Shown: in pieces, positions 7,602 to 33,466 of the stretch | Layout: each line of letters begins with the position of its first letter | Numbering within the stretch: the first letter of the stretch is position 1 | Virus record (IMG/VR): IMGVR_UViG_3300017991_000090 | Span: 20,745-84,744 of that record | DNA length: 64,000 nt | Reading direction: 5' to 3' (one strand) | From: a virus | Program-made: the position numbers and the translations under genes | The notes under the pieces: model-generated | The model's input: only the letters and a program-made list of their open reading frames with translations | The model's database searches: none | Told to the model about the DNA's origin: nothing

Positions 7602-7809
7602 TGGTATATAACTAATTTGACAATGACAATTTAAACCGTTGTTGCATAGGCCCGCTGGCACCTATCCGCTCGGATAGCGGATGGCACATCCCGCTAATAG
7701 AGCGGAATGGTGCGAGGAGGGCCGAGCAACTGAGGTTTGAAATTGAGAATCAAGTTAATTAATAAATTACAATGGCGAAACACCATCCTAATAAAAGTCT
7801 TATATACCA
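7602..7809 (-). ncRNA. Retron-like msr-msd RNA, unit 1
   Basis: 10-bp terminal IR tggtatataa (7602-7611) / ttatatacca (7800-7809). Unpaired G at 7799 on minus strand. Stem AUGGUG-UUU-CGCCAU at 7772-7786. Branched long hairpin at 7627-7745. Confidence 0.7.
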
Positions 7810-7860
7810 AAATAAATCTCCCATATCAGTGATTACAGTTTTTTATCTTAAATAACTTGA

Positions 7861-8070
7861 TTATATCGGCTCTTTGGAGCCGTTTTTAACTATTTGCGCA
7901 TCTTTAAAATGCATAGCCATAACGCAACCGTCTGCGTTGGTTGGCTCGCCAAGCCACTCAGTATCGTTTTCAAGCATTTGCTTGAGGTCAACGTTTTTAT
8001 TGACTTTTACAATCATACTGAAGGTGGCTTCTAATGTGACTCTCCGCGTTCCGTCTTTGCTCGTTCCCAT
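7861..8070 (-). CDS. Hypothetical protein
   Basis: 69 aa with AAGGAG RBS. Confidence 0.6.
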   Translation of the reverse strand: MGTSKDGTRRVTLEATFSMIVKVNKNVDLKQMLENDTEWLGEPTNADGCVMAMHFKDAQIVKNGSKEPI

Positions 8071-8564
8071 CGCAACTCCTTATCATGGTGTGGGCCGGGA
8101 GACCCGATTAATGCAATCTTACGAACCATATGGACCGGTTTTATAGCAATGTCCAGTTTAAGGTTTTTGCGCATCGTGAGCATAACGTTGACACCCATCG
8201 CCTCCGGTATCTTATGGTAGATTAAATCCTTATTTCCAATAAAACTTTTACACTTAACGTCAAGTTGGCTCCTGACACCATTCTGCCAGTATAACACGCA
8301 CCTGCATTGACGCTCTGACCACTCTGGGTGCTTCTTTTTCATTTTGTCGGCGAATTCGCCAATATTAAATTCAACAATAGCAAACCAGTGTGGCTTGGTT
8401 AAATCATAATATTCACCCACTTTTGGAAAGCAGCATTTATTAGGATAATTAGGGCACCCCTTCGGGTGTCCTGGGTATGGAAGCTCACACCAGGCTTTCA
8501 GTCCACCGACTCGTGTTGCTGCGCGATAATTGATTATAAGTTTATTTGTTACTTCTACTATCAT
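8031..8564 (-). CDS. Cys-rich predicted metal-binding protein (DUF2284-like)
   Basis: WCELPY..GCPNY..CC and PEAMGVNV..TM resemble DUF2284 motifs. Confidence 0.6.
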   Translation of the reverse strand: MIVEVTNKLIINYRAATRVGGLKAWCELPYPGHPKGCPNYPNKCCFPKVGEYYDLTKPHWFAIVEFNIGEFADKMKKKHPEWSERQCRCVLYWQNGVRSQLDVKCKSFIGNKDLIYHKIPEAMGVNVMLTMRKNLKLDIAIKPVHMVRKIALIGSPGPHHDKELRWERAKTERGESH

Positions 8565-8579
8565 TTAATCTCCGTATTT

Positions 8580-8610
8580 AAAAAAAAGAGGCGTTTTACC
8601 GCCCCCTTTT
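8580..8610 (-). terminator. Intrinsic terminator closing the four-unit ncRNA array
   Basis: Minus strand GGGGCG-gtaaaa-CGCCTC followed by a U run. Confidence 0.65.
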
Positions 8611-8847
8611 TGTGCGACTAAATCGATAAGTTCGCAAGCACGTTGACGGCGTGTAGGGGTGGAATGGTCCTGCAGCATTCTTTCCTCGTCTTTTCCGAAA
8701 CTCTTCTGAAAAAGCCCTTTTTCTGAAGAGTAGAGGAAGAGTAAAGAATGCGTAACGGACCTGGAACCCCGGGCGCCGTAACACGTCTTGCGCTTAACAC
8801 CAAATTAATGGCTGTGACGAAACATCACAATTAAGCGACTCGCACAA
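8610..8847 (-). ncRNA. Retron-like msr-msd RNA, unit 2
   Basis: IR ttgtgcga (8610-8617) / tcgcacaa (8840-8847). G at 8839. Stem UGUGAUG-UUU-CGUCACA at 8813-8829 inside cgcttaa/ttaagcg. About 160-nt imperfect hairpin at 8633-8792. Confidence 0.75.
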
Positions 8848-9079
8848 CATAACTTAAGATAGATTAACCGGTGGTGGCCACGAGCCATGGGCCCTGGATA
8901 ACACCTCCGATTGTTCCGGAAAAACGCAGTGACTCCGGAACCCTCGGAGGAGTTCTCCCGGGCCCATGGCGTGGGCCACCACCCGACGGGCAGCAAGATT
9001 CTTGCTGCCCGGAAGGGGCCGGGCATAGCGTTTTTTCCGTCTAACACCCTACCGAAACAGTAGGTTTAGAACTTATGTT
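8846..9079 (-). ncRNA. Retron-like msr-msd RNA, unit 3
   Basis: IR aacataa (8846-8852) / ttatgtt (9073-9079). G at 9072. Stem CCUACUG-UUU-CGGUAGG at 9048-9064. Hairpins at 8870-8983 and 8987-9011. Confidence 0.75.
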
Positions 9080-9080
9080 A

Positions 9081-9440
9081 ATACAACTAAAGATTGAAAT
9101 ATCCTTCTATTACTGAAACATCGACGTGATCTCAGGTTACCGGTCTGGCTATGGCCAACGCCATTGCCAGTCCGGTCACCTGTGTGATCTCGTCGCTGTT
9201 TCATAATCGAAGGAACAAGCGAAGGCCCGGAAACTCTCCTGATGAGCTCTGGGTTCGAGATGAGCCAAGTCATCAGGACCCAGCTTCCAGGTGCAGCGGG
9301 TCAACCGGCGAACCTGGACGCTTGGGTCCTGATGATATGGAATCATCTCGAACCCAGAGCTCATCACTCCCAGTTTCCGGTGCCGCAGCGCCTTACCTTT
9401 GCTTAGTATTGCCGGTGAAACACCAGCCTTTCTCTTGTAT
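9081..9440 (-). ncRNA. Retron-like msr-msd RNA, unit 4
   Basis: IR atacaa (9081-9086) / ttgtat (9435-9440). G at 9434. Stem GCUGGUG-UUU-CACCGGC at 9411-9427. Hairpins at 9102-9214 and 9227-9380, the latter with a perfect 24-bp stem (9240-9263 / 9343-9366). Confidence 0.75.
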
Positions 9441-9454
9441 AAAATGTATAAATT

Positions 9455-9851
9455 AAGTACATGCTAAAGATTGAAATAACGCATCCATTTACTCCTGGCT
9501 GAGTGACTGATTGTCTGGTCGTAACATCTGCAGCTTAGCGGGCGCAGCCGGCGGTGCTGCCGATGTTAGCGACAAAGACATAAAGTCAACGAAGCGTGGT
9601 GTAAATGGCATCCGTTTATTAGCCAATATCAGCAAACCGTACATCTGGCGCATCGCCTCCAAGGGGGTGGTGGGCGCCAAGAGAAGCGCAAACATCAATC
9701 CGGCTCCAGCCGGAATTGATGGAAGGGCTTCTATATTGGCGCCGTCCAACCCTCCTGGAGGCGTAGCTCCGGATGTGTGGTTTGCGCCAATATTTGCGAT
9801 CTGCTTTTATTTGGTAACACTGAAGAAGCTTCAGCTTATCCCCGTGTACTT
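9455..9851 (-). ncRNA. Retron-like msr-msd RNA, unit 5
   Basis: IR aagtacatg (9455-9463) / cgtgtactt (9843-9851), one mismatch. G at 9842. Stem CUGAAG-CUU-CUUCAG at 9820-9834. Hairpins at 9475-9620 and 9625-9794. Confidence 0.7.
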
Positions 9852-18490: not shown

Positions 18491-21400
18491 ATGCCAGATT
18501 CTAAACAGAAGGTTTTGCAGAAGCTGTCAAAGATGGATGCTGACGCTCGCAGCAACGTGTTGATGAATACGACAGTTTCTGGCACTGTACAAAGAATACT
18601 TGAGTCCGTTGAAGATGATGAAGTTAAGCTGAAGGTCAACAAAATCTGGGTAGATAGAAAGCACAACAATAAAGACATCTCTGCTCAACAGTCGGTCAGG
18701 AATAAAGGCCAGATATGGGGAAACGATTTACGGGCAGACCTTGAGTTTGTTGACAAAACTACCGGAAAGGTTGTTGACCGGGTTCCAAATATTAAAGTTA
18801 CTAACATTCCAAAAATTACAGACCGCGGCACATTTCTCGTTAAGGGTAATGAGTACCAGTTTACAAAACAATCCAGGTTGAAGCCCGGCGTATACACAAA
18901 GCGACAGACCAATGGTGAGATAAGCTCTTTCTTCAATGTTGATAAGACCGTCGATTTTGAGCGAGGATTTAACAATAATTTCAAAATCAATTTCAACCCT
19001 GAGAAGAAAACATTCACCATGGGGTATGGCTCCAAGAACATACCTCTTATCAATGCTTTAAGAATGGTGGGTGTGAGTGAAAAGGAACTGACAGACCGAT
19101 GGGGAAAGTCGGTCTACGAAGCCAATTCAAAAGCTTATGATAAACATGCTACCAGGGACCAGAACAAATTATACGAAGCAATATTTGGCCGCCCTCCGGC
19201 AACTGGAACACCAACGGCAAAAATAAATGAAGAGATAAAAGAACGACTTTTTGTCACAGGCTTAGACCCTGAAACTACTCAAGTTACGTTGGGTAAGCCA
19301 TATAAAAATGTCAACAAAAATGTTCTGCTTGATGCATCCAATAAAATTATTGGAATACATAAAGGTGATGTTGAAGGTGACGACCGGGAAGCTCTGATAT
19401 TCAAATCCTTTTATGACATCGAAGACCATGTCAGGGAGAAGCTGGTCAAGAACAGTGGAAAAATTATCAACAATATTAAGTACAAGCTTAAAAAGAATAA
19501 ACAGATTAATAAATCAATCAGCTCCCAGGTATTTGACCCGTTCGTTATAGGTGTCGTAACCAGCAGCCAGCTGTCAAACCCACCAAACCAGACCAACACC
19601 ATGTCAATAATCGGAGAGGGTAGTAAGTTCACCGTAATGGGTGAGGGTGGTATAGGAACCACCAATGCTATCACCAATGAGACCAGGCAGATATCAAATA
19701 GTGAAGCAGGATTTATCGACCCGCTTCATACACCTGAAGGCCCGGGTATTGGAGTTGCGGTGCACAGCACTGTTGATACGATAAAAGTTGGCAATGATTT
19801 ATACAGTCGCTTTCTGTCCCCAAAGGGTGAAACGGTTATGATGCGCCCAATGGACACATGGGGTAAGAATATTGCTTTCCCGGATGAGTATGACACCTCC
19901 AGAAAAGTTCCAAAACCGAAGAAGAGGAAAGTCAGGGTTATCAATAAAGGTGATATCAAAGAGGTTGCTGCATCAAAGGTTGACAGTATCATTGCCAGCC
20001 CGTCAGGTATGTTCGACACATCTGCAAACTCAATACCATTCCTGAATTCAATCCAGGGTAACCGTGGGCTGACAGCTTCGAAAATGCAAGAGCAAGCCCT
20101 GCCGTTAAAATACCGTGAGCAGCCTGTGGTTAATATTGTTGATGAAAACGGTATGTCTATTGGCGGAATGATGGCAGAGACAATGGCACTCCCAAAGTCC
20201 CCAGCAGCTGGAACCGTAACCAAGGTAACGCCGGGTAAAATAACTATCACTGATAAAAAAGGTGCCGCACATGATGTGCAGCTTTACAATAATTTCTCAT
20301 TAAACTCAGAGAGTTTCATTCACAACGAGCCTCTTGTCAAAGAGGGCGATAAGGTTAAATCGGGACAAACTCTTGCCGACAACAATTTTACCAAAGATGG
20401 TAAAGTTGCTATCGGCACAAATCTCCGGGTGGCGTACCTTCCATACAAGGGCTACAACTATGAGGATTCCGCGGTAATGTCAGAAAGTGGCGCGAAGAAA
20501 TTAACCTCATTGCATATGCGTGATTTTAAAGTAAAGAGGTCAGCTAAAGGCACGTTCTCGAGAGATAAGTTCAAAGCGTACTACCCTGAAGAAGCAAATG
20601 CCGAACAGCTGTCGAAGCTGGACAAAGACGGTGTTATTAAAAAGGGCCAGAAAGTAGCTCGTGATGATATTCTTATTGCGCATATGGAGCGGCGCGTCCC
20701 GACAGCTGATGATAAGGCGCTTGGGCGTCTTGACAAACAGCTTATGAAAGACATGACCAATAATGCCATCAAGTGGGACAATGACCATGTTGGAAAAGTT
20801 ACCAATGTTGAGAAGCATGGTAACAGCGTCCTTGTCAGCATCAAGACCGAAGAACCCCTTCGTGAGGCTGATAAAATATCCGGGCTGCATGGCAATAAGC
20901 ACATTATATCAAAGATACTTCCCGACCATGAAATGCCTTATGACCCGAAAACCGGAAAACACATTGAGTTGACTATGAACCCGATTGGTGTATCCAATCG
21001 TATTAATACATCTCAGATTCTGGAAAATGCAGCGGGCAAAATCGCTGACAAATCAGGGAAGCAGTATAAAGTTTTAAATTTCTCTGGTGAAGATAATTCA
21101 CAAAAAGTAATGGATGATTTGAAAAAATGGGGCCTGGACGATAAAGATATTTTAATCGACCCTGAGACGGGAAAGCCTTTTTTAAACCCGGTGGCTAATG
21201 GGAAGTCAAACATCCTGAAGCTGGAACACATTGTAGAGCATAAATTCTCTTCACGATATAAAGACGGGTACGATGCAAATGAGCAGCCAGTAGCCGGTGG
21301 AAAGACCGGTGGTAAGAATCTTGCCAGAATGGAAATGGCTGCAATGCTTGCTCGCGGCGCCAATGAAAACCTGAAGGAGATGTTTCAAATTAAAGGCCAG

Positions 21401-30311: not shown

Positions 30312-30562
30312 GTTGATGAAGCTGAATCTGGCTGGGGTCGGGGGCCAGACAGGGGCAACCCTGACTGGCCGCACGGTTCCCGCATGTTAGTGCGGGAGCC
30401 GTGACCAGGCATTGATCGACACAAATCCACATTTGTAAAACAGCTTCTGTTTTAGAAATTGGATTTGTTATACGCCCCGTGCGTTTTTGTGAGCCACAGG
30501 TGCCTTATATGCCCTCCGAAGCGAAACGCTTCAGTCGAGAGCTCAGCTCTCCCTCCATCAAC
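30312..30562 (-). ncRNA. Retron-like msr-msd RNA, unit 6 (RT-adjacent)
   Basis: 10-bp IR GUUGAUGGAG/CUUCAUCAAC (one G-U). G at 30552. Short stems GAGAGC-UGA-GCUCUC and GAAGCG-UUU-CGCUUC (30518-30532). Further hairpins at 30327-30349, 30350-30363, 30372-30403 and 30421-30468. Confidence 0.75.
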
Positions 30563-30784: not shown

Positions 30785-31273
30785 TTATTTACCCTTCGCC
30801 TTAAGCATCTGCTCCTTGACAATAGCATCAACAGCATTGTTATACTGATTTGATGCATGCCCTTTCACCCACTTAAAGGTAAAGGATTTAAATTCGGGGG
30901 TAATACTATCCAACCTTTTCCACAAATTCAAGTTTAATACTTTCTTACCGTTTGATTTTCTCCAGCCGTTCCTCTTCCATTCAGGAAGGTATGCAGTATA
31001 GTTCTCACTTACATACTGCGAATCTGGCCTTACTATACAATGGTGGTTTGAGGCGCCGTCATAAGAATCGTCCAGCTCTTTCTTTAATGCCTTTAACCCT
31101 TGAATAACAGCGAGCAATTCCATCTGATTATTGGTGACGTTTATTCTGTAGCCACCTCCTTTTCTTATTATTGTGTTGGCAGGGTCTAATATAATCCACC
31201 CGTACCCTCCAGGACATCCAGCATCTCTCTTGTTTCCAGAGCAACCACCGTCAGTGTAAACTGTAAATGTCAC
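30785..31273 (-). CDS. rnhA: Ribonuclease HI
   Basis: YTDGGCSGN, TNNQMEL, DSQYV, WKRNGW, N..LW, WVKGH...YNNAVD. Confidence 0.95.
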   Translation of the reverse strand: MTFTVYTDGGCSGNKRDAGCPGGYGWIILDPANTIIRKGGGYRINVTNNQMELLAVIQGLKALKKELDDSYDGASNHHCIVRPDSQYVSENYTAYLPEWKRNGWRKSNGKKVLNLNLWKRLDSITPEFKSFTFKWVKGHASNQYNNAVDAIVKEQMLKAKGK

Positions 31274-31287
31274 TAATTTCTCCGTTT

Positions 31288-32340
31288 CTAATTAAATTTT
31301 TCTCCTTCAAATTTTAGCAACTGATCCATGTATTTCTTTCCTTTACCATGGTCAATTGACATAACAAATGAGGCGTACCCTTTTAATTGTTTCAGAAGTG
31401 ATTTGGTAGTTTTATCAGCGTGTTTAACAGTGGCGTGGTGTACCTGTGCCCGGAATAGATGCATCCTTTTCCGCTGTATTGATGTTTTTACGTTAACAAC
31501 AACACCGCACACCTTAAGCCTTCCTGCTTTTGATTTCCACAATGTTTTCTTTTTATTCGGAGTAAATCCATAAGCCCACAGCTGTCTGTATGCCTGCTGT
31601 TTTATGGCTTTCTTTAACTCTTTTTTAGTCAAGGTTTTACTGCTGAACGCAAGGTCGTCAGCATACCTGGTATATTCAATGTCTCGCTCTTTGCAATATC
31701 TGAGCATGGTCTGGTCGAAACCCCTCATAACGATATTCGCTATCATTGGAGAGGTGGGAAACCCCTGTGCAGTATATCCATCAACAGTGCAAAGGTCAAT
31801 TATCCGGTTAAACATGGACTGGTAGCCAGTAGCCTCGCAATATTCTTTAATGACTACGGCTTTTATCTCTTCGCACTTAAACTCATAATTCTGGTTTTTA
31901 TTATGATAAAGCGATGGGCTGCACCTTCCATCCAGCATCCGTTCATAAAATTTGCAATATCTGCAAATATGCTTATTGCCGAACAGGCAGTTTTTCAAAT
32001 GTTCCGTTGATATGGAATCAAAGAAACTCTTAATGTCAATCTTACCAAGAGAGTTTGCTCCGACATGGAGCTTTGCATTTGTTGCAATACCTTTCTTTGC
32101 CACAAAGCCATGAGCAGCCTCACTCGGCCTGAACCGGCGAAGAAAGCGCCAGTAAATTGACTTCTGTATATATTTTAATCGTTTGTCGGGTGCAACGATT
32201 TGTCTTTTGGATCCGTCCTTTTTAGGGACTGTTATCCTATCAAGATGATTGTGTTTATTTAGAATTATGTCATCAATTTCTTCAATTTCGGCCCCAAGAA
32301 TCTTGGGCATGTCAAAATTACTGAGTGGAGCCTTTATCAT
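31288..32340 (-). CDS. Retron-type reverse transcriptase
   Basis: PKKDGSKRQI, AHGF, NAKLH (retron NAxxH region X), DIKSFFDSI, QGFPTSP, YTRYADD, VCG (variant of retron VTG region Y). Confidence 0.92.
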   Translation of the reverse strand: MIKAPLSNFDMPKILGAEIEEIDDIILNKHNHLDRITVPKKDGSKRQIVAPDKRLKYIQKSIYWRFLRRFRPSEAAHGFVAKKGIATNAKLHVGANSLGKIDIKSFFDSISTEHLKNCLFGNKHICRYCKFYERMLDGRCSPSLYHNKNQNYEFKCEEIKAVVIKEYCEATGYQSMFNRIIDLCTVDGYTAQGFPTSPMIANIVMRGFDQTMLRYCKERDIEYTRYADDLAFSSKTLTKKELKKAIKQQAYRQLWAYGFTPNKKKTLWKSKAGRLKVCGVVVNVKTSIQRKRMHLFRAQVHHATVKHADKTTKSLLKQLKGYASFVMSIDHGKGKKYMDQLLKFEGEKFN

Positions 32341-33466
32341 TAGTTTTGTCTTCCTCCTGTTCTTCTACGGCCTTTTTGCGGGCCTCGTTCATATCCTTGG
32401 CTTCTCCTGTTTTGACCATATCAGTAGCTTCGGTCTCAACCGGATCCACCTCAATATCCACTCCTACCTTTTCCATCTCAGCGTCTGCCATTTCGCCCTC
32501 CGGATTAAGTATTGTTAAAATGTCATCAATATGTTGTTCCAATTTATCTTTGGTAATAACTGAGCCACCAACATCATGGTGGCCACCGCCACTTATGGTG
32601 TAATTAAACCCTCCCAGCATTTGACCAATATGAACACCATTGGTAAAATTGCCCCATTGATTAAAACCAACATCGGTCTGTACCCTGTCGCCACCGAGGT
32701 GTACAACTCTGAATGCATATTTTACATCAGGCCTGACATAATATTCAGAATACCTGGGGTAAGCATACAGTCTGTTCATCTCAGTGATCGCAACCGGTCC
32801 ATTTATAACCATCGCCTTTTCAATGGACAAGGCTGCCTTCCGTAACTTTGCAACAGCCGACTGGTCAATACCGAGAGTTAGCAACGCCTCATTAATGTCA
32901 AAGTCTGCTGCACAAATCACTTCGACTATTCTGCAATACAGCGAATCAATCGTAATAGTCATCTGCTCAAGGTGCGCTTTTAATATCATCAAAGGCGTAA
33001 GACAGCTGAATATATATTCAACAGATTCATAGCCGGCGCTGTCAATCATATCAACCATATTAATCATATGCGGGTCAATCGGCAAATACCTTCCAAGCGG
33101 GTTGTATGTAAGGTGTTCATAAATAATTTTCGCCGCAGATTTTGCCTTTGGGTCATAACACTTGTTCGGATCAATGACCGGCTTGTCACCAAGGGTTTTA
33201 TTGTAATGGTGGTCAATCCATAAGTTGGCCATTTCATGGTGCTGGTAGTCAACAATTATACAAATGTCGTTACCATCCAAATCCGCATCTTCTATGATTT
33301 TATTAAACTTATCACCCCTCTGTGAAGACCTCACAGGTCTTAGGGTGTACATTCTACCATCGACCACGTACTTTAAAACCAAAGCCGCGCTTATAATACC
33401 ATCCACATCATCGTGGAAAAAGATGTGAAACATACCGTTGTTCATTCTTGGTATATGCCCTTTCAT
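32318..33466 (-). CDS. DHH/DHHA1 phosphoesterase (NrnA/RecJ superfamily)
   Basis: HDDVDG, IVD, WIDHH, SAA and GGGH motifs; overlaps the RT start. Confidence 0.85.
   Translation of the reverse strand: MKGHIPRMNNGMFHIFFHDDVDGIISAALVLKYVVDGRMYTLRPVRSSQRGDKFNKIIEDADLDGNDICIIVDYQHHEMANLWIDHHYNKTLGDKPVIDPNKCYDPKAKSAAKIIYEHLTYNPLGRYLPIDPHMINMVDMIDSAGYESVEYIFSCLTPLMILKAHLEQMTITIDSLYCRIVEVICAADFDINEALLTLGIDQSAVAKLRKAALSIEKAMVINGPVAITEMNRLYAYPRYSEYYVRPDVKYAFRVVHLGGDRVQTDVGFNQWGNFTNGVHIGQMLGGFNYTISGGGHHDVGGSVITKDKLEQHIDDILTILNPEGEMADAEMEKVGVDIEVDPVETEATDMVKTGEAKDMNEARKKAVEEQEEDKTNDKGSTQ

Follow-up and report, generated by a model that had tools for sequence, protein, structure and literature searches.

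Predicted priming junction and cDNA leader of six retron-type template units in an uncultured phage

The window analysed here, a 64,000-nt stretch of an IMG/VR phage record (IMGVR_UViG_3300017991_000090, positions 20,745 to 84,744), carries six minus-strand units that fold like retron templates and share the same junction beside their closing stems, with an unpaired guanosine predicted on each strand. Our comparisons support the view that the six units behave as retron msr-msd RNAs. We propose that the CT found on the plus strand right after the closing arm, together with the leader that follows it, is where the cDNA of a retron template is initiated and processed, and that one phage reverse transcriptase (RT) acts on all these templates in trans, a reading to which we assign a probability of roughly 0.6. 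Junction and leader are a variant of a known retron feature within an unusual system, and the leader is the part that adds something new beyond ordinary retron geometry.

Template units and their genomic setting

The source record is 84.7 kb long and about 47% complete. The window holds replication genes (primase-helicase, exonucleases) and a virion gene (terminase). Five of the units lie at 7602-9851, between replication genes (primase-helicase, exonucleases and a Gp3-like protein) and about 22 kb from the RT gene, and the sixth is located downstream of the RT and RNase H genes; the canonical cassette order, with msr-msd directly upstream of the RT, is not found here. Units 5-4-3-2 are arranged head to tail, with units 4 and 5 only 11 nt apart, and unit 1 follows two small ORFs. 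The features are as follows, with a1 and a2 denoting the terminal inverted repeats and the arm and junction sequences read on the plus strand.

7602..7809, minus strand: unit 1 (a2 7602-7611, a1 7800-7809)
7612 and 7799, minus strand: template-side G and candidate branching G of unit 1; arm TGGTATATAA followed by CTAATTTGA, C at 7612
from 7613, minus strand: unit 1 leader, TAATTTGA.., TTGA at 7617-7620
7771-7787, minus strand: unit 1 msr hairpin, G-UUU-C loop
8580..8609, minus strand: terminator-like hairpin with U-run, just after unit 2
8610..8847, minus strand: unit 2 (a2 8610-8617, a1 8840-8847)
8618 and 8839, minus strand: template-side G and candidate branching G of unit 2, msr hairpin at 8812-8830; arm TTGTGCGA followed by CTAAATCGAT, C at 8618
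from 8619, minus strand: unit 2 leader, TAAATCGAT, TCGA variant at 8623-8626
8846..9079, minus strand: unit 3 (a2 8846-8852, a1 9073-9079)
8853 and 9072, minus strand: template-side G and candidate branching G of unit 3, msr hairpin at 9048-9064; arm AACATAA followed by CTTAAGATAG, C at 8853
from 8854, minus strand: unit 3 leader, TTAAGATAGATTAA, TAGA at 8860-8863
9078..9443, minus strand: unit 4 (a2 9078-9086, a1 9435-9443)
9087..9101, minus strand: unit 4 junction and leader; arm TTAATACAA followed by CTAAAG.., with C9087 the complement of the unpaired template-side G
9088-9101, minus strand: predicted single-stranded cDNA leader of unit 4, TAAAGATTGAAATA, TTGA at 9094-9097
9240-9263 and 9343-9366, minus strand: perfect 24-bp arms within the unit 4 msd, which has two long hairpins
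9411-9427 and 9434, minus strand: unit 4 msr hairpin and candidate branching G
9455..9851, minus strand: unit 5 (a2 9455-9463, a1 9843-9851, one C.A mismatch)
9464..9478, minus strand: unit 5 junction and leader; arm AAGTACATG followed by CTAAAG.., with C9464 opposite candidate branching G9842, TTGA at 9471-9474
9819-9835, minus strand: unit 5 msr hairpin, G-CUU-C loop
30281-30302: terminator-like hairpin after unit 6
30312..30562, minus strand: unit 6 (a2 30312-30321, a1 30553-30562)
30322 and 30552, minus strand: template-side G and candidate branching G of unit 6, msr hairpin at 30516-30534; arm GTTGATGAAG followed by CTGAATC, C at 30322; leader TGAATCTGGCTGGGGTCGGGGG
30785..31273, minus strand: RNase HI gene, directly after the RT gene
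31288..32340, minus strand: retron-type RT, 350 aa, motifs NAKLH, YADD and VCG
32318..33466, minus strand: DHH-family phosphoesterase, overlapping the start of the RT gene

All six units fold into a closing stem, an msr hairpin and long msd hairpins. Terminal inverted repeats close every one of them, with arm sequences that differ from unit to unit while complementarity is kept, and a long imperfect msd hairpin lies between the msr and a2. The msr hairpin, 6-19 nt past the candidate branching G, has in every unit a stem of 7-8 bp (closing G-C counted), an NUU triloop and compensatory changes. By sequence and fold it is of the type recognised by retron RTs (7-10 bp stem, loop of about 3 nt); the RTs of Ec86 and Ec73 bind an 8-9 bp stem with a three-base loop. 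The hairpin at 8580..8609 would presumably terminate the transcript bearing units 5-4-3-2. Arms of neighbouring units overlap by 2 nt between units 2 and 3 (8846-8847) and between units 3 and 4 (9078-9079); since a1 of one unit thereby shares bases with the next a2, neighbouring closing stems would compete on one transcript.

Two small ORFs are found beside the array. One, of 69 aa at 7861-8070 on the minus strand, lies between units 1 and 2; its product has homologues (37-43% identity) within or next to the arrays of three more distant relatives (L025, L027 and L028) and may be a small protein associated with such arrays. A 177-aa ORF (8031-8564) returned no homologues in the fetched loci and no family matches. 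Searches of the whole window gave no Rfam match at gathering thresholds and no tRNA with ARAGORN.

The RT matches the PADLOC retron RT models with E-values down to 1e-63. Its best NCBIfam match is retron_St85_RT at 208 bits, below the family cut-off of 235, and the closest solved chains in a PDB sequence search are the RTs of Ec86, Ec83 and Ec78. It carries TNAKLH, YADD and VCG where retron-clade RTs have NAxxH, YADD and a VTG-type motif. An insertion of about 60 aa (residues ~115-175) interrupts the matches to the retron RT models, leaving two segments. It contains four cysteines (C126, C129, C140 and C156) that are invariant in 23 homologues, and it may form a zinc-binding module that Ec86-type RTs lack. 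The DHH protein is NrnA-like (short-oligonucleotide phosphodiesterases), as its closest solved relatives are PggH and pAp-phosphatase, and it is a candidate for trimming of msDNA or clearance of RNase H products. No effector or toxin was found, the RT neighbours (RNase HI and DHH) having no PADLOC match.

The guanosine pair at the closing stem

The initial annotation held that CT follows the arm on the plus strand in every unit, placing a G opposite the branching G, and proposed this as a conserved initiation context. Both observations hold in 6/6 units, with the caveats that the unit 4 arm is perfect over only 6 bp and that in unit 5 the C.A mismatch adjoins the closing G-C pair. In the minus-strand RNA a G follows each arm partner, at the six candidate branching positions listed above (7799, 8839, 9072, 9434, 9842 and 30552). 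Since each arm runs into CT on the plus strand, the RNA reads ...A-G before a2 and G... after a1 throughout.

A blind search indicates that the pattern exceeds chance. The best arm pair was sought around each msr-type hairpin, with the inner bases ignored, for 33 hairpins from 7 phages; an earlier arm finder that accepted G-U pairs and arms of 6 nt had proved too permissive. A G on each strand lay inside the best-scoring arms in 19/33 cases, and an A preceded the template-side G in 19/19 of them, versus 29/600 (4.8%) decoy anchors with the two guanosines and 12/600 with the two guanosines plus A. The 14 misses are mostly cases of a chance helix outscoring a short true arm, and in units 2-5 the pair with the two guanosines ranked second or third. 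When the genome was block-shuffled, each copy yielded 0-3 weak units, compared with six in the unshuffled record, scoring 12.5-20 and every one on the RT strand.

The opposition of two guanosines is the canonical retron priming geometry and was already known. Retron precursors carry two unpaired conserved guanosines, one per strand, the second of which is essential for initiation (Millman 2020), and the Ec86 locus, read directly from an E. coli genome, shows a1-G-CGAG... and ...CTGAC-G-a2. It is on these two sources, the published statement and the Ec86 locus, that we call the feature textbook and treat it as general. A contig scan with the Ec86 RT for further canonical retrons returned a single 534-bp fragment. 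With the two guanosines in place, what would be a structural resemblance becomes a solid argument for retron membership, and the result supports the existence of a multi-template, toxin-less retron in a family of large uncultured phages.

The comparison also bears on where the cDNA would begin. Reverse transcription of Ec86 begins at a cytosine, according to a review, which fits the C immediately 5′ of its unpaired G. Since Ec86 copies first the base 5′ of the unpaired G, the predicted cDNAs here most likely start at the T of CT, and the C would merely complement a G that is not copied. The first copied base is thus C in Ec86 and would be A here, giving dT. As a rule for the whole family, CT is too strict: it stands for the array class, while the orthologues of unit 6 keep only the template-side G, the next template base being mostly U.

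The leader and its T(T/A)GA motif

For the leader, conservation was assessed in 23 curated units (7 phages) by reading the predicted cDNA after the C. Its first base is T in 23/23 units and it starts with TAA in 17/23. The motif T[TA]GA occurs within the first 14 nt in 18/23 units; 2000 composition-matched shuffles, which allow for the higher motif background of AT-rich leaders, averaged 4.9 such units and never exceeded 11. It is found at approximately +5 to +10 (+5 to +9 in 17/18, and +1 in 1/18, the L027 unit at 2802). The five units without it (5/23) have TCGA in two cases and ATGA in one, and neither in unit 6 and one L027 unit. Folding with DNA parameters leaves 13-14 nt of leader unpaired in units 1, 3, 4 and 5, with the msd stem following directly; the first paired nucleotide of the unit 4 cDNA is at +15. 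The leader had been described as A-rich and single-stranded: the second term agrees with the DNA fold, while the first understates an arrangement of TAA(A) followed by T(T/A)GA. Nor is the leader unconserved in homologues, as it might have proved to be, for it is kept across the family. When unit 5 is aligned with orthologues from four other phages, the arms, the branching G, the msr hairpin and the leader prove conserved; the msd is poorly alignable. Pairing of the leader RNA with the bases after the branching G was considered as a general explanation and rejected, being found in unit 4 only (AAAG/CUUU).

The arrangement resembles a known single-stranded DNA cutting signal. Two papers report that 5′-TTGA (Eco4, Eco7) or 5′-TAGA (Sen2, Vch1, Vpa1) is important for msDNA recognition and cleavage, and that the msDNA is cut between the fourth and fifth deoxynucleotides, which frees the DNA from the RNA; for Ec83 the cleavage is credited to Kim et al. 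1997, as cited in two later papers. We therefore envisage the following sequence of events. The a1/a2 stem of each unit would end in two unpaired guanosines, of which the 5′ G would offer its 2′-OH as primer and the facing 3′ G would stay uncopied. The base beside the uncopied G, A in all array units, would template a dT as the first deoxynucleotide. Over its first ~14 nt the cDNA would remain single-stranded, with TAA(A) and then T(T/A)GA a few bases ahead of the msd stem. TAA(A) may reflect the preferred start of the RT, and T(T/A)GA would be recognised for cleavage, as its counterpart is in the Ec83/Ec78 and St85-type retrons. A single shared nuclease cutting at this site would yield RNA-free hairpin DNAs from every template. 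A start context joined to a processing site in this way would be the best lead to the function of the leader.

It is conceivable, at perhaps one chance in a few, that the leader is kept only for the RT start or for clearance of the priming site, with no cleavage, so that the msDNAs would remain branched to RNA. Conservation is indeed strongest at the start site itself, at +1 to +4 (T, A, A, A), and retron subfamilies are known to keep first bases of their own, for example TCAG in Eco1 and Vmi1. In Ec83 (Retron-Eco4), Ec78 (Retron-Eco7) and the TAGA retrons the motif likewise stands in the single-stranded leader before the msd stem; however, in those known retrons it occupies +1 to +4 and cleavage is demonstrated, whereas here it sits at about +5 to +10, behind TAA(A), and cleavage is putative. 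The analogy may fail because of this displacement, and the host-factor dependence of msDNA cleavage in E. coli was also weighed against it. On the other hand, a requirement for starting alone would not readily account for an excess of T[TA]GA over composition (18/23 against a shuffle maximum of 11), nor for the two variants being the two reported for cleavage, and the variable position of the motif, from +1 to +9, is more typical of a recognition site than of a fixed start register.

A second question concerns the identity between units 4 and 5. As described in the initial annotation, the 15-mer CTAAAGATTGAAATA is present exactly at 9087-9101 and at 9464-9478; its explanation by duplication followed by cargo replacement is unsupported, because only the leader is common to both units. 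Their local alignment scores 31 over the leader segment only, against a shuffle maximum of 22. Whole-unit duplication was rejected, nothing beyond the leader rising above shuffle background. More generally, the identity might stem from recent local copying, by duplication, gene conversion or template switching, and the 15-mer might have no function. The two units are adjacent and exactly identical over 15 nt, and this is the sole similarity between units above shuffle background, which would be in keeping with copying. Nevertheless, we regard this as unlikely, since the identity begins exactly at the arm and stops at about the base of the msd stem. With an unpaired leader of 13-14 nt and the msd stem right after it, the 15-mer fills one structural module, from arm to approximately the msd base. 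The msr parts, which ought to have survived a duplication, show no relationship. Moreover, the unit 5 orthologue L021 u1, from a phage whose RT is only 74% identical, matches the 15-mer over its first 14 nt, and a similar leader is carried by units with other, unrelated arms (L023 u1, L025 at 4510). Constraint on the leader, or exchange of leader modules, appears to fit these sequences better than duplication with cargo replacement.

We also considered that the motif might work as a protein-binding site at the DNA level or as an RNase site at the RNA level, unrelated to reverse transcription. The location of the array among replication genes and the AT-richness of the motif would be in keeping with such a role, which we nonetheless judge highly improbable: the motif sits at one fixed place in a covarying RNA fold, beside the two guanosines, and on the RT strand only, even at unit loci far from the replication module, and an RNase cut there would destroy the template. 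Initiation and processing of a retron cDNA continues to be our preferred reading of the junction and leader, which are also the most directly testable parts of the system, as they predict the 5′ ends of six cDNAs and a likely cut site.

Known retrons, possible roles and relatives

Among described systems, Ec86 (Retron-Eco1) and the St85/Sen2 family (type II-A) are most alike. Their a1/a2 stem likewise finishes with A-U pairs and leaves one G unpaired on either strand, the msr stem-loop has the G-UUU-C loop, and a single-stranded 5′ DNA leader precedes a long msd hairpin; theirs are also the RTs most similar to the one found here (NCBIfam, PDB sequence search). Ec86, in contrast, has one ncRNA immediately upstream of the RT and a toxin effector where this phage has six ncRNAs, and its type of RT is without the four-cysteine insertion of about 60 aa. 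Engineered multitrons and recombitrons also combine one RT with several tandem templates that have different closing stems; those are synthetic editing tools, whereas the array described here is natural, phage-borne and conserved in phages of 160-210 kb. A survey reported retron-like RTs in viral metagenomes, with templates not noted, and we found no description of natural phage arrays of retron templates in the literature.

Use of the T(T/A)GA site would mean that these phages make RNA-free hairpin DNAs, which would narrow the possible roles of the products, and would offer natural, mutually orthogonal templates with one RT for multiplex production of single-stranded DNA. Going further, the leader might be the address tag of a phage “single-stranded DNA factory”, in which the RT, assisted by RNase HI and the DHH nuclease, would copy six to ten different templates and a cut at T(T/A)GA would free the hairpin DNAs. 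We put this forward tentatively and consider it more doubtful than otherwise. Were it true, the hairpin DNAs could be decoys for host defence sensors during infection or could serve as replication or recombination substrates, and retrons would here be an offensive tool of the phage, not a bacterial defence.

A single-protein IMG/VR search with the RT retrieved no relatives; they were reached through an alignment of RT homologues, which gave 541 homologues at E<=1e-10 and 16 close IMG/VR loci. Among GenBank phages, RT identity to this one does not exceed 28%. Close relatives keep both the DHH-RT-RNase H operon and the unit 6 orthologue. Six further phages have a Gp3-like gene about 22 kb away and then arrays of three to six such hairpins, which brings arrays with the same junction to 7 phages. 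In L026 and L028 no G-NUU-C hairpin was found on the expected strand beside the Gp3-like gene.

In a complete 186-kb relative (G002), nine or ten candidate units are spread over four or five loci (~17.5, 51.2, 51.7 and 92.4 kb, plus an array at 113.9-114.9 kb), all on the RT strand, which holds 14 G-NUU-C hairpins versus 1 on the other. As the source record is only about half complete, it may miss some units.

The RT-proximal unit 6 represents a class distinct from the array units. Its orthologues (L002, L003, L015, L016 and L017) occupy the same place in the relatives. The 3′ part of the template is strongly conserved in this class, reading ..CCCCGACCCCAG.CAGGUUCUG directly before a2 and giving a G-rich cDNA start, and the msr has two hairpins.

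Among public data, the locus is carried by one DNA metagenome (Logan contigs), and a search of sequencing runs listed no RNA dataset. Three public contigs stop at 9240-9366, where unit 4 has its perfect inverted repeat with 24-bp arms; this looks like an assembly effect of the palindrome. The public contigs show a single T/A difference, at 8999, in the central loop of the palindrome at 8987-9011.
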